DNA of 36,521 bases from Tolypothrix carrinoi HA7290-LM1 (GCA_019358935.1 JAHHIK010000087.1:1-36521), one strand, 5' to 3'; shown: positions 31,123 through 35,515, numbered from the stretch's first letter. The notes: generated from the sequence alone by a model not told the origin. Numbers and translations are program-made.

Positions 31123-31151
31123 TTGACACTGCATACTACATATACTACATT
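31123..31151 (+). promoter_or_regulatory. Candidate sigma70 promoter for the Y-like RNA / Ro60 locus
   Basis: TTGACA-17 bp-TACATT. Confidence 0.55.
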
Positions 31152-31227
31152 AGGAATACAAGCTGATGTAGAAAAAGGAGTAAGCTTTTAGCAGTATTTG
31201 CATTGAATCTCAAATCCAAAATTTCAT

Positions 31228-31352
31228 GTGGTAAGTAGCTCAATAGTAGAGCGCCAATTTTATCCGTAAGGGTCGAAGAATAAAGGGTTATCGCGAAAGT
31301 GTCCCCCTTAATTTGCCGGAAATGCGGGTGCAAATCCCGCTTTGCTACACCA
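31228..31352 (+). ncRNA. tRNA-like Y RNA candidate 1 (class A)
   Basis: 8-bp acceptor GTGGTAAG/TTTGCTAC + ACCA, D-arm GCTC..GAGC, T-arm GCGGG-TGCAAAT-CCCGC; ATCC-GTAA-GGGT-C-GAAG hairpin in place of the anticodon arm. Confidence 0.85.
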
Positions 31353-31387
31353 AATTAATTAGAAATACAAAACGTGCGAATTTTCAT

Positions 31388-31517
31388 GTGGTGGGTAGCC
31401 AAGTGGTTGAAGGCGCTAAACATCCTTGTTCACAACTTGCTTGAAAAAGCCGAGGAATTGAGGGTTATCGTAATACAAACGAGTATTCGTGGGTTCAAAT
31501 CCCGCCCCACTACACCA
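31388..31517 (+). ncRNA. tRNA-like Y RNA candidate 2 (class B)
   Basis: GTGGTGGG/CCCACTAC + ACCA, D-arm GCC..GGC, T-arm GTGGG-TTCAAAT-CCCGC; CTTGCTT-GAAA-AAGC-C-GAG hairpin. Confidence 0.85.
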
Positions 31518-31571
31518 ATTAATTTGAGATTTTAGATTTAATCTAAAATCCTTGGCTCCAAAATTTTCTAT

Positions 31572-31702
31572 GTGGTAAGTAGCTTAATAGTAGAGCGCCA
31601 ATTTTGCCCAAAAGGGACGGAAGAATCGAGGGTTATCGCTGTTAACGAACTATCCCCTTAATTCGCCGGAGATGCGGGTGCAAATCCCGCCTTGCTACAC
31701 CA
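31572..31702 (+). ncRNA. tRNA-like Y RNA candidate 3 (class A)
   Basis: GTGGTAAG/CTTGCTAC + ACCA; close paralog of candidate 1. Confidence 0.85.
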
Positions 31703-31778
31703 AATAATTCAAAATAAAAAATGCAAAATTTTGCATTTTCAACTCTTAACTCTTAACTCCTAACTTCTAACTTTATAT

Positions 31779-31906
31779 GTGGCGGGTAGCTCAGTTAGGT
31801 AGAGCGCCGAAAACATCCTTTTTCACAACTTGTCTGAAAAGACCGAAGAATGAGGGTTATCGCATTTGAAGCCGGATGTCGCAGGTTCAAGTCCTGCTCC
31901 GCCACC
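31779..31906 (+). ncRNA. tRNA-like Y RNA candidate 4 (class B, CCA not encoded)
   Basis: GTGGCGGG/TCCGCCAC, D-arm GCTC-AGTTAGGTA-GAGC, T-arm GCAGG-TTCAAGT-CCTGC; CTTGTCT-GAAA-AGAC-C-GAAG hairpin. Confidence 0.85.
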
Positions 31907-31941
31907 TTTCATTTTGCCCGTAAGGGCTGGGAGATGAAGTC

Positions 31942-33543
31942 ATGAATTATAAATTCTTTACAAAAAATAAGACAGGTACACCACAAAATAAACCTATCCC
32001 TGGACGAGAAGCAGAGATGATTCAGGGACGTAGTGGTGGCTTCATGTTTGATGCTGGCATTTGGCAGATGTTGCGTCGCTGTTTGCTAGTTGGCACGGCA
32101 CAAAGCACTTATTATGCCGGAAAGCAGGAATTAACAGAGGATTTTGTCGCGGTTTTAAAACAAGCTGTTGCGGAAAATCCCCGCCGCGTTGCCGAAGAAA
32201 TCTTGTATGCTAGCGATGGACGCGCCATCAACAACAGTGCGCCTATCCTTGCATTAGTGCTGCTATCGATGGGTGAAGCACCAGAAGCTAAAAAAGCTTT
32301 TATGGAAATCTTTCCCCAAGTTGTTCGCACCGGTAGCCACTTCTACGAATGGTTGAGTTACACTAAATCTCTGCGGGGATTTGGTAAGGTGGTACGCGAA
32401 GCTGGTAAAAATTGGCTATCTCGTGAAGATGTGAAAGCTTTAGCTTATCAGCTTTTGAAATATCAACAGCGTCAAGGCTTCACTAATCGCGATGCATTAA
32501 GATTGTTTCATGTCAAGCCACCTACAGAAGATCATCGCCAACTGTTTGAGTGGGTGGTCAAAGGTTGGGAAGAAATGCCTGTGGAAATTCCTTCGCAGGC
32601 GATCGCCCAGATTTGGTGGTATGAATGGTTAAAGCGAAATCCCAGCAAAACTCATGAAGCCATTACTCAAGGACACCTAAGCCACGAAATGGCTGCACCT
32701 GTGGGCAAAATGGACAAAGCTGCTTGGCAGCTACTTTTCTCTGAAATGCCAATTGGGGCAATGTTGCGTAACCTCGGTTCACTAACAGAACTGGGTGTTT
32801 TGCAAACTCACGAAAGTGCGAATTTGCTGCGGGTGGAAGCTGTTCTCAACAACAAAGAACATCTGCGTAAAGGACGCATCCATCCGATTGATGTTTTGAA
32901 AGCGTTGAAAACTTATCAATCTGGGGGAAAATTAGGACGCAGCCAGAAGACTTGGAACCCAGTTTCTCGGATTGTAGACATCTTAGAAAAAGCGGTTGAA
33001 TTGTCTTTTGATGTAGTCGAACCCACAAATAAAGTCTTCATGCACGCCGTTGACGTTTCTGGTTCAATGGGTGGTATGGTTGCGGATATGGGGCTGACTT
33101 GTTGCGAAATTGCCACAACAATGGCGCTAGTTACAGCAAAAGCTGAGAAAAACTACATGATTCGCGGCTTTGCTACCGACTTCCGCGACTTGGGTATTAC
33201 TGCCAAAGATAGTTTTGGTTCGGCTGTTCGCAAAGCTAGCAATCAAAACTTCGGTGGAACAGATGCATCTGTAGCCTATGACTGGATGATTAAGAATAAG
33301 TTTAAAGCAGATGTCGTTTGCTTTTGGACAGATTCAGAATCATGGGCTGGTTACAAGCATCCGAGTCAAGCGCTGGCTAAGTATCGGCTTCATGTGAATC
33401 CCGATGTCAAAGCGGTGTATGTCACTCTGACACCTTATCAGATTACGCTGGTAGATCCGAAAGATCCGCTCTCCTGGGATTTAGGCGGATTCGATCCGGG
33501 AATTCCTCGGATTATTCAGATGTTAGCTACGGGTGAATTGTAA
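31942..33543 (+). CDS. rsr: Ro60-related TROVE/vWA RNA-binding protein (Rsr)
   Basis: RSGGFMF N-terminus, KYQQRQGFTNRDALRLFH, MLRNLG, RIHPIDVL, DVSGSM MIDAS, GGTD, TDSE. Confidence 0.93.
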   Translation: MNYKFFTKNKTGTPQNKPIPGREAEMIQGRSGGFMFDAGIWQMLRRCLLVGTAQSTYYAGKQELTEDFVAVLKQAVAENPRRVAEEILYASDGRAINNSAPILALVLLSMGEAPEAKKAFMEIFPQVVRTGSHFYEWLSYTKSLRGFGKVVREAGKNWLSREDVKALAYQLLKYQQRQGFTNRDALRLFHVKPPTEDHRQLFEWVVKGWEEMPVEIPSQAIAQIWWYEWLKRNPSKTHEAITQGHLSHEMAAPVGKMDKAAWQLLFSEMPIGAMLRNLGSLTELGVLQTHESANLLRVEAVLNNKEHLRKGRIHPIDVLKALKTYQSGGKLGRSQKTWNPVSRIVDILEKAVELSFDVVEPTNKVFMHAVDVSGSMGGMVADMGLTCCEIATTMALVTAKAEKNYMIRGFATDFRDLGITAKDSFGSAVRKASNQNFGGTDASVAYDWMIKNKFKADVVCFWTDSESWAGYKHPSQALAKYRLHVNPDVKAVYVTLTPYQITLVDPKDPLSWDLGGFDPGIPRIIQMLATGEL

Positions 33544-33685
33544 GGGTTAATGGGCATTGGGCATTGGGCAATGGGCAATGGACAATGGTAATAATTCTTT
33601 CCCTTGTCCACGCCAGTCGCCGAGGGCGTTCGTGACCTCCGCACGGAGAAAAGCTCCCCTTGTCCCCACTCCCTAACCCCAGTCT

Positions 33686-33797
33686 TGGCGGGTTTTCCTG
33701 GTTCACAACTTACCTGAAAAGGACGAAGAACTTAGGGTTATCGGTTAAAATCTCCACCATTGTGGGGATCAGCGGGTTCAAATCCCGCACCCGCCGT
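33686..33797 (+). ncRNA. Y-like RNA candidate 5 (no D-arm)
   Basis: GGCGGGT/ACCCGCC closing stem, class-B core, AGGGTTATCG, extra hairpin ATCTCCAC/GTGGGGAT, T-arm GCGGG-TTCAAAT-CCCGC. Confidence 0.78.
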
Positions 33798-33939: not shown

Positions 33940-34359
33940 ATGTCAGCCAAAGATAGATTTCACGAGGCTGTAAAAACTGCACTTCAAAAAGATGGGTGGA
34001 CGATAACCGATGATCCACTGAGTATCCGTATAAGCTCTAGAACCAAACTTTATATAGATTTAGGAGCCGAAAAAATTATTGCTGCACAACGCGATCAAGA
34101 AAAAATTGCCGTTGAAGTCAAAAGTTTTTTGAGTGCTTCTACAATAGCTGAATTCCATACAGCAGTAGGACAATATATTAACTACCGCTACGCTTTGACA
34201 GACTTTGGTTATGAGCAAACTTTATATTTAGCAGTACCTTTTTACATTTATGATGATTTTTTTACACAGCCATTTGTTCAGTCGGTGATTCAACGTAGCC
34301 AAGTTAATTTACTTATTTACGATGATGAAAAAGAAGAGGTTGTGCGATGGCAAAGCTAG
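33940..34359 (+). CDS. xisH: XisH-family protein
   Basis: MSAKDRFHEAVKTALQKDGWTITDDP, IDLGAEK, IAVEVKSF. Confidence 0.93.
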   Translation: MSAKDRFHEAVKTALQKDGWTITDDPLSIRISSRTKLYIDLGAEKIIAAQRDQEKIAVEVKSFLSASTIAEFHTAVGQYINYRYALTDFGYEQTLYLAVPFYIYDDFFTQPFVQSVIQRSQVNLLIYDDEKEEVVRWQS

Positions 34360-34682
34360 AAGAATATCGAGATTATATTCAGCAATTACTGACAAAATAT
34401 GCAGCGCGTGACTCTGGTGAAGATGGTGTAGAAGTGCAAACTATTTTTGACACGAAGCATGACCACTATCAGGTTTCTTATGTTGGTTGGCGCAATCGAC
34501 GGCGCGTTTTTGGTCCGGTGATGCATCTTGATATTAAGAATGGCAAAATTTGGATTCAGTGGAATGGTACTGAAGATGACATCGCGGCAAAATTAGTGGA
34601 AATGGGTGTAGCTAAGGAAGATATTGTATTAGGGTTTCACACGCCGTATGTGCGCTCCTTTACAGATTTTGCGGTGGGGTGA
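34347..34682 (+). CDS. xisI: XisI-family protein
   Basis: DHYQ, HLDIKNGKIWIQWNGTE, DIVLGFH; overlaps xisH. Confidence 0.93.
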   Translation: MAKLEEYRDYIQQLLTKYAARDSGEDGVEVQTIFDTKHDHYQVSYVGWRNRRRVFGPVMHLDIKNGKIWIQWNGTEDDIAAKLVEMGVAKEDIVLGFHTPYVRSFTDFAVG

Positions 34683-34774
34683 TTTTAATCGGGTTTGGGG
34701 AGTGCGATCGCCAAATTTCATTTCTTTTGTATACTAAAAATAGATTACGTTCTCAAAGGCGAAAGGTAGTCAGT

Positions 34775-35192
34775 GTGCCAGCAAGAGACATCTATCATGA
34801 TAATTTTAAAAATGCACTTATCAAGGATGGCTGGATAATTACCCATGACCCTTATATGCTTAAATGGGGTTTGAAAGATTTATACATTGATTTAGGCGCA
34901 CAGAAACTTTTAGCAGCAGAAAAGCAAGAGCAAAAAATTGCCGTTGAAATTAAAAGTTTTGTTAGTCCATCTGAAGTTGAAGATTTAAAGAACGCTTAAT
35001 AGTCAATTTATTCTTTATAATGATATCCTCGCTCGCACAGAACCAAACCGCAAGCTTTATCTGGGTATCACGCGCGCTGTATTTATAGATATTTTTGAAG
35101 AGCCAATCGGTAAAATATTACTGGAAAATGAACGTGTCAGATTAATTACATTTGACTCAGAACAGGAGGCAATTATTAGATGGATATTTTAG
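34775..35192 (+). pseudogene. xisH: Second XisH-family gene, frameshifted near 34997
   Basis: (V)PARDIYHDNFKNALIKDGW...DLKNA*, then the +1 frame continues SQFILYNDILARTEPNRKLYL...EAIIRWIF*. Confidence 0.85.
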
Positions 35193-35515
35193 ATAAATAT
35201 CGGCAAATTATTCAAAATATTTTAGTAACCTATGTTGATATCAAGTATGCCAATGGAGACATACATAACGAAACAATTTTCGACCAGCCAACCGATAGAT
35301 ATTTAGTGATGTCATTAGGATGGCAAAGAGTAAAACGAATTCATGGTTGTTTAATTCACATCGATATTATTGATGGGAAAGTGTGGATTCAACGCGATGG
35401 AACTGAATATGGTATTGCTAATGAACTAGTGGATGCGGGTATTCCCAAAGAGCATATTGTACTTGGGTTTCATCAACCAAACGTGCGACAGCATACCGGT
35501 TTTGCTGTAGCTTGA
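35180..35515 (+). CDS. xisI: Second XisI-family protein
   Basis: RIHGCLIHIDIIDGKVWIQRDGTE, HIVLGFH. Confidence 0.93.
   Translation: MDILDKYRQIIQNILVTYVDIKYANGDIHNETIFDQPTDRYLVMSLGWQRVKRIHGCLIHIDIIDGKVWIQRDGTEYGIANELVDAGIPKEHIVLGFHQPNVRQHTGFAVA

Follow-up and report, generated by a model that had tools for sequence, protein, structure and literature searches.

Five small RNA genes beside rsr

The stretch of DNA analysed here (the window) comprises 36,521 nucleotides of the Nostocales cyanobacterium Tolypothrix carrinoi HA7290-LM1 (GCA_019358935.1 JAHHIK010000087.1:1-36521). It carries a gene for Rsr, the Ro60 orthologue, and five small RNA genes that adjoin rsr on the same strand within about 4 kb, as expected of bacterial Y RNAs. 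We examined these five units and a 10-mer with the motif UUAUC, AGGGTTATCG, that is present in each of them. The rsr gene (31942..33543, + strand) encodes 533 amino acids, and domain and PDB matches identified both the TROVE ring and the vWA domain that characterize the Ro60/Rsr family. Among PDB entries the protein matched D. radiodurans Rsr with 250 bits, Xenopus Ro60 with 223 and a second vertebrate-type RO60 with 221; its nearest named relatives are from Tolypothrix and Plectonema (97–98%). In the PDB-match alignment the Xenopus Ro60 residues K170, R174, D181, R184 and H187, some of which we take to be Y RNA contacts, have identical counterparts in Rsr.

All five units lie on the + strand and have a T arm and an acceptor stem, and four have a D arm. 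Between these tRNA-like parts lies a Y module, which consists of a helix with a bulged C (the Ro helix) under a short cap, an upper stem and then UUAUC. Folds of single sequences disagreed in the middle part, and the insert by itself had weak z-scores; covariation was therefore used instead. Three unit types could be distinguished. In type A both strands of the upper stem flank the Ro helix. RNA2 (31388..31517, encoded ACCA, model score 115.9 bits) and RNA4 (31779..31905, no encoded CCA, 135.7 bits) belong to this type, both being among the training sequences of the model. RNA2 is a tRNA body with the Y module inserted after position 28, in which the 30-40 hairpin is kept and U33 is lost, and RNA4 has an acceptor stem, D arm, Y module, anticodon-like loop (31864-31870, with U33, a UUG triplet and A37), variable loop and T arm. 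In type B the upper stem is closed by a strand downstream of UUAUC. RNA1 (31228..31352, 55.9 bits) has an 8-bp acceptor stem with encoded ACCA, a D arm, the capped Ro helix and a T arm, and a GNRA tetraloop hairpin replaces its anticodon loop; RNA3 (31572..31702, encoded ACCA, 52.9 bits) has an anticodon-like loop with a GUU triplet directly 3' of the motif. Type C has no D arm and lies 3' of rsr. It is represented by RNA5 (33687..33795, a partial match of 41.7 bits, z-score −3.3), with its acceptor stem, Y module, long hairpin and T arm.

Among 316 units parsed at 104 cyanobacterial loci, 221 were of type A, 12 of type B and 78 of type C, and 5 were left unassigned; 80 of the loci are the best 80 of 317 matches and come mostly from Nostoc, so that the counts overstate independence. 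Types A and B are present too in the genome with the most divergent Rsr of the cyanobacterial clade (67% identical). The only Rfam matches at the locus were to tRNA with a large insert, at RNA1 and RNA3, and ARAGORN called 0 tRNA genes there. The units depart from canonical tRNAs in the 8-bp acceptor stem, the interrupted anticodon arm and an anticodon that drifts on one acceptor type.

The 10-mer as a joint between two domains

A preliminary description of this DNA had reported five identical 10-mers with diverging flanks, each a few nucleotides past a CGAAG-like strand, and our analysis bore this out. Exact copies of AGGGTTATCG lie on the + strand at 31284..31293 in RNA1 (UUAUC at 31288-31292), 31461..31470 in RNA2 (31465-31469), 31629..31638 in RNA3 (31633-31637), 31853..31862 in RNA4 (31857-31861) and 33734..33743 in RNA5 (33738-33742), and their immediate neighbour bases differ among the five. 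The bulged C is found at 31274, 31451, 31618, 31844 and 33724 in RNA1 to RNA5, and UUAUC starts 13, 13, 14, 12 and 13 nt after it. The strand of the Ro helix is of the GNCGAAN0-1G-like kind and reads CGAAG in three units, with the variants CGAGG in RNA2 and CGGAAG in RNA3. When one mismatch was allowed, seven matches to the 10-mer were found against 1.48 expected, a number that 0 of 100 shuffles reached. The whole genome (7.96 Mb) contains nine exact copies, five of them inside one 2.5-kb stretch of the locus; these five are paralogues at one locus and not five independent observations.

The structure and covariation of type A were taken from a MAFFT alignment of 36 units. The Ro helix was paired in 97% of cells, with two-sided changes in four of its six pairs. 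The AGGGU of the 10-mer is a strand of the upper stem and pairs with AUCCU upstream (96% of cells), a pairing without covariation support, both sequences being almost invariant. UAUC forms an unpaired junction in the structure model, and the last G corresponds to tRNA G30 (31470 in RNA2, 31862 in RNA4), which pairs with a C ten bases on in 35 of the 36 units. The 10-mer is the joint between the Ro60-binding module and an almost complete tRNA body.

Since some per-position conservation figures rest on motif-defined units, the frequency of the motif was taken from 333 cyanobacterial units that were defined by the T arm and Ro helix only, without use of the motif. The exact 10-mer was present in 286 of them, and also in the genome with the most divergent clade Rsr, so that the motif is not missing from other cyanobacterial homologues, the finding that would have spoken against the preliminary description. 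UUAY followed the bulged C at 11–14 nt in 328 units (1, 144, 178 and 5 units at 11, 12, 13 and 14 nt), with a spacing of 12–13 nt in 322. Neither the absence of the D arm (type C) or of the anticodon loop (RNA1) nor a rewired upper stem (type B) displaces the motif, which indicates that its position is tied to the Ro helix rather than to the tRNA body.

The motif in other bacteria, phages and animals

We then considered 47 loci whose Rsr falls outside the cyanobacterial clade, from Actinomycetota, Alphaproteobacteria, actinophages, other genomes and metagenome contigs, after exclusion of five near-duplicates and of four eukaryote loci with introns. An upstream Ro-like strand was found at 40 of 101 T-arm sites, and in 27 of these 40 YUAYC started 11–13 nt after the bulged C, 20 of them at exactly 12, compared with 0.19 in shuffles and 1 of 23 in the organism's own genome outside the contig. 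The full 10-mer occurred in just 3 of 31 units outside the clade, and upper stems outside cyanobacteria differ in sequence while their pairing is kept. The general part is the (G)UUAYC core only, and the invariant AGGG is clade-specific. The preliminary description had proposed an element shared by cyanobacterial and animal Y RNAs; a link special to these two was not supported, as the core stands at the same distance in the 27 non-clade sites. At three loci with a non-clade rsr (L105, L106 and L107) long arrays in which tRNAs and Y-like units are mixed lie downstream of the gene.

A conserved YUAY is described as opening the YrlA 'V loop', and the alignment in Supplementary text 2 of the same paper prints the same 10-mer for Calothrix, Stanieria and Gloeocapsa (Chen et al. 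2014, PMC4201824). In the Salmonella crystal structure the UA of YUAY introduces a kink into the stem (Wang et al. 2018, 10.1101/312249). In our reading the UUAUC of the cyanobacterial units is the same element as this YUAY.

The comparison with animals was made by counting on the printed sequences of three mammalian Y RNAs and not by structural alignment. In human Y4 (PMC6096425) and in mouse Y1 (PMC4597359) UUAUC starts 12 nt after the bulged C, against 12–13 nt in bacteria, in keeping with the positional equivalence that the preliminary description had suggested. Vertebrate Y RNAs and nematode stem-bulge RNAs (sbRNAs) are described with a bulged-C lower helix, an upper stem and then UUA(U/C)C (PMC4450293; RF00019), and in the units, too, this motif stands directly past the upper stem. 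The animal RNAs differ in having no tRNA domain and in ending at the lower stem, which is formed by their paired 5' and 3' ends, whereas the Ro helix of the units is internal and capped; the units also do not share the UG-CA upper-stem motif reported for the animal RNAs. The UUAUC described here is most likely the loop-opening UUAUC of animal Y RNAs and sbRNAs, and the bacterial–animal equivalence looks real and general, with nothing specific to cyanobacteria. We found no source in our literature search that treats YUAY and UUAUC as equivalent; Sim and Wolin 2018, Boccitto and Wolin 2019, Sim et al. 2020 and the sbRNA supplement lay outside it.

The match to animals could also stem from convergence or chance, a folding-favoured junction having been fixed in cyanobacteria by duplication. 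The motif is indeed short, variants such as UUACC, CUAC and UUUAC exist, the invariance of AGGG is limited to the clade, and a review terms bacterial Y RNAs not homologous with the vertebrate clades (PMC4726728). We nevertheless think such an origin unlikely: RNAs associated with orthologous proteins have bulged-C strand, upper stem and UUAUC in the same order and with the same spacing, and outside cyanobacteria the intervening stem is free to vary, yet the distance of the motif is kept.

Units in tRNA order

The units resemble YrlA RNAs (PMC4201824; 10.1101/312249; RF02553) in their position on the same strand beside rsr, the GNCGAAN0-1G-type Ro strand, YUAY, and the D and T arms, apart from the missing D arm of RNA5. 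YrlA as described in these sources is permuted, with the T arm 5' of the D arm, closes its acceptor stem with a loop and reportedly has no anticodon loop. In contrast, the units have the D arm before the T arm, end at an 8-bp acceptor stem, cap the Ro helix, and show an anticodon stem-loop signature in the part that corresponds to the 'V arm'. The 3' acceptor strand paired better with its own 5' strand than with that of the next unit in 40 of 53 distinct cases, with 11 ties and 2 cases reversed. In this test the 5' strand was fixed by the D arm alone; it supersedes an earlier version (44:1) that picked 5' strands partly by pairing. Two-sided changes were observed at all 8 acceptor pairs of the 36 type A units. 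In 214 of 297 D-anchored calls, a set that contains false D calls on type C, the eighth pair is G-C; the acceptor stem is followed by ACCA in 108 of these calls, and ACCA is encoded in three of the five units at the locus. By these measures the units are in tRNA order and not permuted like YrlA.

In the drawings of Chen et al. 2014 (PMC4201824) cyanobacterial YrlAs have a long acceptor stem, and in the aligned cyanobacterial sequences of that paper the Ro strand of one unit is followed by a spacer and the next D arm. The mature RNAs might, as that model and alignment would have it, be ordinary permuted YrlAs that extend across two neighbouring units and have a spacer-derived long acceptor stem; closed-loop YrlAs are established in Salmonella and M. 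smegmatis, and the paralogous strands are similar enough for cross-pairing. We regard this as improbable, given that own-unit pairing beats next-unit pairing 40 to 2, that the spacers range from 9 to 222 nt, that no T arm precedes the D arm of the first unit and no D arm follows the last unit, that the Ro helix is capped within each unit and that ACCA is encoded after the stem. The published 'long acceptor stem' YrlAs of cyanobacteria would then span two units, and their boundaries are probably wrong.

A tRNA-order layout with a retained anticodon loop was not found in the literature searched, and some key Ro60/Y RNA reviews fell outside that search. This layout is a variant of a known Y RNA type. 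Deinococcus, with Yrn1/Yrn2, Rsr and PNPase (RYPER), likewise has several Y RNAs beside rsr, and both strands of the Ro helix are kept; Yrn1/Yrn2 come from a polycistronic precursor, and their tRNA-like module differs from that of the units.

Relationship of cyanobacterial Rsr to animal Ro60

The preliminary description had called for a Ro60 tree that would place this Rsr near or away from the animal clade. Mean identity to 16 named animal Ro60s was 30–32% for 15 cyanobacterial proteins and 34–45% for 37 other bacterial and phage proteins, a comparison from which 14 loci without a full-length protein were dropped (two were recovered for the tree). Against vertebrate Ro60 structures two non-clade Rsrs scored 409–439 bits, compared with 221–223 for the Rsr of the locus. 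The trees contained a well-supported eukaryote group and a cyanobacterial group without a stable neighbour on a very long branch; this stem branch, of 1.2–2.2 changes per site, leaves the cyanobacterial group unplaced either way. Eukaryotes and cyanobacteria formed a clade in 11 of 1000 bootstrap trees, and the approximately unbiased (AU) test, run with LG+G4 on 30 rows of the 60-row mixture-tree set, did not reject this clade (p 0.44; p 0.62 against a poorer quick tree). The trees neither support nor reject a sister position for the cyanobacterial group, and the cyanobacterial Rsr proteins are the least animal-like set sampled.

That the motif marks a special kinship between cyanobacterial and animal Ro60/Y RNA systems, for example through a cyanobacterial donor, is very improbable on these data. 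Such kinship could draw on GGGUUAUC, which is common to the cyanobacterial units and human Y4, on the type B units, which share the animal topology of an upper stem followed by a UUAUC that opens the loop, and on the AU test, which leaves the joint clade standing. Against it, other bacteria and phages match the core motif and its spacing equally well and most often show the animal distance of 12, the cyanobacterial proteins are less similar to animal Ro60s than the others are, the joint clade is nearly absent from the bootstrap trees, and the long stem branch leaves the position unsupported in either direction.

Two Ro60s from the eukaryote protein collection (P0154 and P0175) group with animal Ro60 in the trees. 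From its label we take one of the two to be probably a non-animal holozoan, and the eukaryote acquisition of Ro60 may predate animals.

The retained anticodon arm

UUAUC is separated from the T arm by exactly 19 nt in 186 of 342 units, which is the length of tRNA positions 30-48. When segments of 18–19 nt were compared, 41 of 50 distinct arms had 30:40 and 31:39 paired, U33 and a purine at 37; the same signature had a mean of 1.1 in shuffles (maximum 7 in 2000) and appeared 0–6 times in shifted registers. The two bases 3' of the D stem pair with 42-43, and two-sided changes were seen at 27:43 (5), 28:42 (14) and 31:39 (18) among the 36 type A sequences. Positions 34-36 are near-random (1.9–2.0 bits, A34 triplets included), with many anticodon triplets on one acceptor type, and U33 is present in 39 of 42 arms. 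Units built in this way were also detected outside cyanobacteria, including a viral contig (L133, L160), and the 'V arms' published for the YrlAs of Mycobacterium, Gordonia and Streptosporangium align by eye with the anticodon loop (Chen et al. 2014, PMC4201824). Of 11 distinct type B units, 6 keep an anticodon-like loop. From the position of the joint, the Y module is inserted near position 29/30, and most units keep an anticodon stem-loop whose anticodon appears to drift freely. The kept loop shape and the free triplet fit a decoy or docking role rather than decoding. At three loci (L004:2611-2745, L032:2597-2732 and L083) units have a tRNA-Leu-like D arm, a longer arm after the motif and U for the bulged C; more than one kind of tRNA scaffold may carry Y modules.

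That the units are interrupted tRNA genes, whose Y module is excised as a non-canonical intron before RtcB ligates the halves into working tRNAs, is scarcely credible: removal of the insert does restore a cloverleaf with a 7-nt loop, and two RtcB genes exist elsewhere in the genome (G000:C143 and C71, neither linked to the locus), but one acceptor type with many anticodons, near-random positions 34-36 that include A34 triplets, the 8-pair acceptor stem and the 67 ordinary tRNA calls that the genome already has all argue against it. Among public RNA runs the best share was 0.11; contigs from four of them, which come from relatives only and lack ends and strand, showed no joint matching insert removal and carry no weight on this point. 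One 10-kb contig of the genome carries an array of 23 tRNA calls (G000:C183:6577-9684), and a second cluster of 5 lies on C42. The larger array resembles what we take to be the known spare tRNA operons of cyanobacteria.

Proposed function of the units and of UUAUC

With a probability of roughly 0.7, we interpret the five units as the Y RNAs of the adjacent Rsr, built in tRNA order with the Y module in the anticodon stem, and UUAUC as an ancestral part of the Ro module common to many bacteria. Of 18 genomes with an intact clade rsr, model R1 of the units matched 17, and it matched none of the 23 other genomes; in relatives its matches sit near rsr, one of them 5.5 kb away. From the observed sequence, domain order, covarying pairs, spacing and distribution we infer how the units might be transcribed, processed, bound and used. 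The Y module (upper stem, capped bulged-C helix and UUAUC) would interrupt the 5' strand of the anticodon stem near 29/30. The array would be co-transcribed with rsr from the putative promoter at 31123 and cut by tRNA-maturation enzymes into single tRNA-shaped RNAs, each of which Rsr would bind at the bulged helix. UUAUC, about one helical turn further, could act as a hinge that orients the distal domain, so that its anticodon-like loop and tRNA elbow would be presented to a tRNA-recognising partner.

Several observations weigh against this interpretation. The Rfam models match nothing at the locus: YrlA (RF02553) gave no match at E up to 10 and none on the contig (150 of 190 candidates scored), and Y_RNA (RF00019) gave none in the region scan or on the contig (150 of 1348 candidates scored). 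R1 was trained on loci of several genomes that it later matched, with 84 candidates scored per genome, and the structure used for covariation was derived from the same sequences. Most loci are from Nostoc species, and counts are not independent. The anticodon-like loop is absent from 5 of 11 type B units, and RNA2 is without U33; public RNA runs gave contigs of relatives only. The animal homology rests on 5–6 letters and the spacing in two animal RNAs. Another printed Y4 fragment gives 13 nt (PMC5331234), and human Y3 has UUUAC at 13, one base further on (PMC13501136). The nematode sbRNA motif is reported to matter in a cell-free replication assay and not for short stem-only RNAs (PMC4450293), which points to folding or another factor rather than to Ro60.

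As for the role of UUAUC itself, we give a direct contact with Ro slightly less than an even chance. The distance between UUAUC and the bulged C is fixed across phyla while the stem, the downstream domain and the topology vary, which fits a ruler set by Ro60 as the sole common partner. A purely structural kink is a tentative but serious candidate, and the recognition of UUAUC by another factor is rather unlikely. The element may be mainly structural in view of the protein-free kink in the Salmonella structure, the sbRNA data and the binding of phage Ro60, which is reported to bind tightly to a minimal stem-bulge RNA that may or may not carry the motif (PMC12135203). The literature search found no paper for PDB entries 9NEN, 9NEP, 9NF8 and 9NFA.

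A possible origin of Y RNAs

A wider scenario is possible, though on balance doubtful: Y RNAs would have arisen as a Ro module inserted at about position 29/30 of a tRNA, the layout kept here, YrlA and animal Y RNA would be derived from it by permutation, and UUAUC would be a second Ro60 contact from bacteria to mammals. Under this scenario the shape of the anticodon loop would be selected while the triplet drifts, as for a decoy or sensor of enzymes that attack anticodons or modify tRNAs. A permutation that opens the Ro helix at its cap would give YrlA. Animal Y RNA would share this permutation and would in addition have lost the tRNA at the boundary of the insertion, and a deletion at this old junction would explain why UUAUC opens the animal loop.

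The presence of the motif in bacteria and in animals was already known separately, and the origin of animal Ro60 is not settled by the present data. The comparison places animal UUAUC, YrlA YUAY and the cyanobacterial 10-mer at a single position of one module and thereby provides a precise bacterial mutation target for an element of unexplained role in human Y RNAs. It also suggests that the 'variable arm' of YrlA should be read as an anticodon stem-loop, a reading that challenges the dimeric-tRNA origin model, and the retained loop offers the anticodon decoy as a testable function. A locus of this type exists in a tractable strain, Picosynechococcus PCC 7002, in which rsr lies on plasmid pAQ7 with three unannotated units upstream (L119).

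Promoter and flanking features

A sigma-70-like promoter (TTGACA, 17 nt, TACATT; 31123..31151, + strand) is predicted upstream of the array with a consensus score of 10/12. Sites of this kind are no more frequent in the region than expected by chance. Of 101 related loci, 84 have the same pattern upstream of their first unit. Three short TACA-containing direct repeats (31123-31165) extend across the spacer, the −10 box and the start region and are kept in many related loci; they are possibly an operator for some regulator. Short tandem repeats of the kind typical of Nostocales intergenic DNA occur between rsr and RNA5 (33550-33680) and between RNA3 and RNA4 (31740-31775). Two XisH/XisI pairs are located 3' of RNA5 (33940-35515), and the second XisH-like frame has an early stop at 34999.

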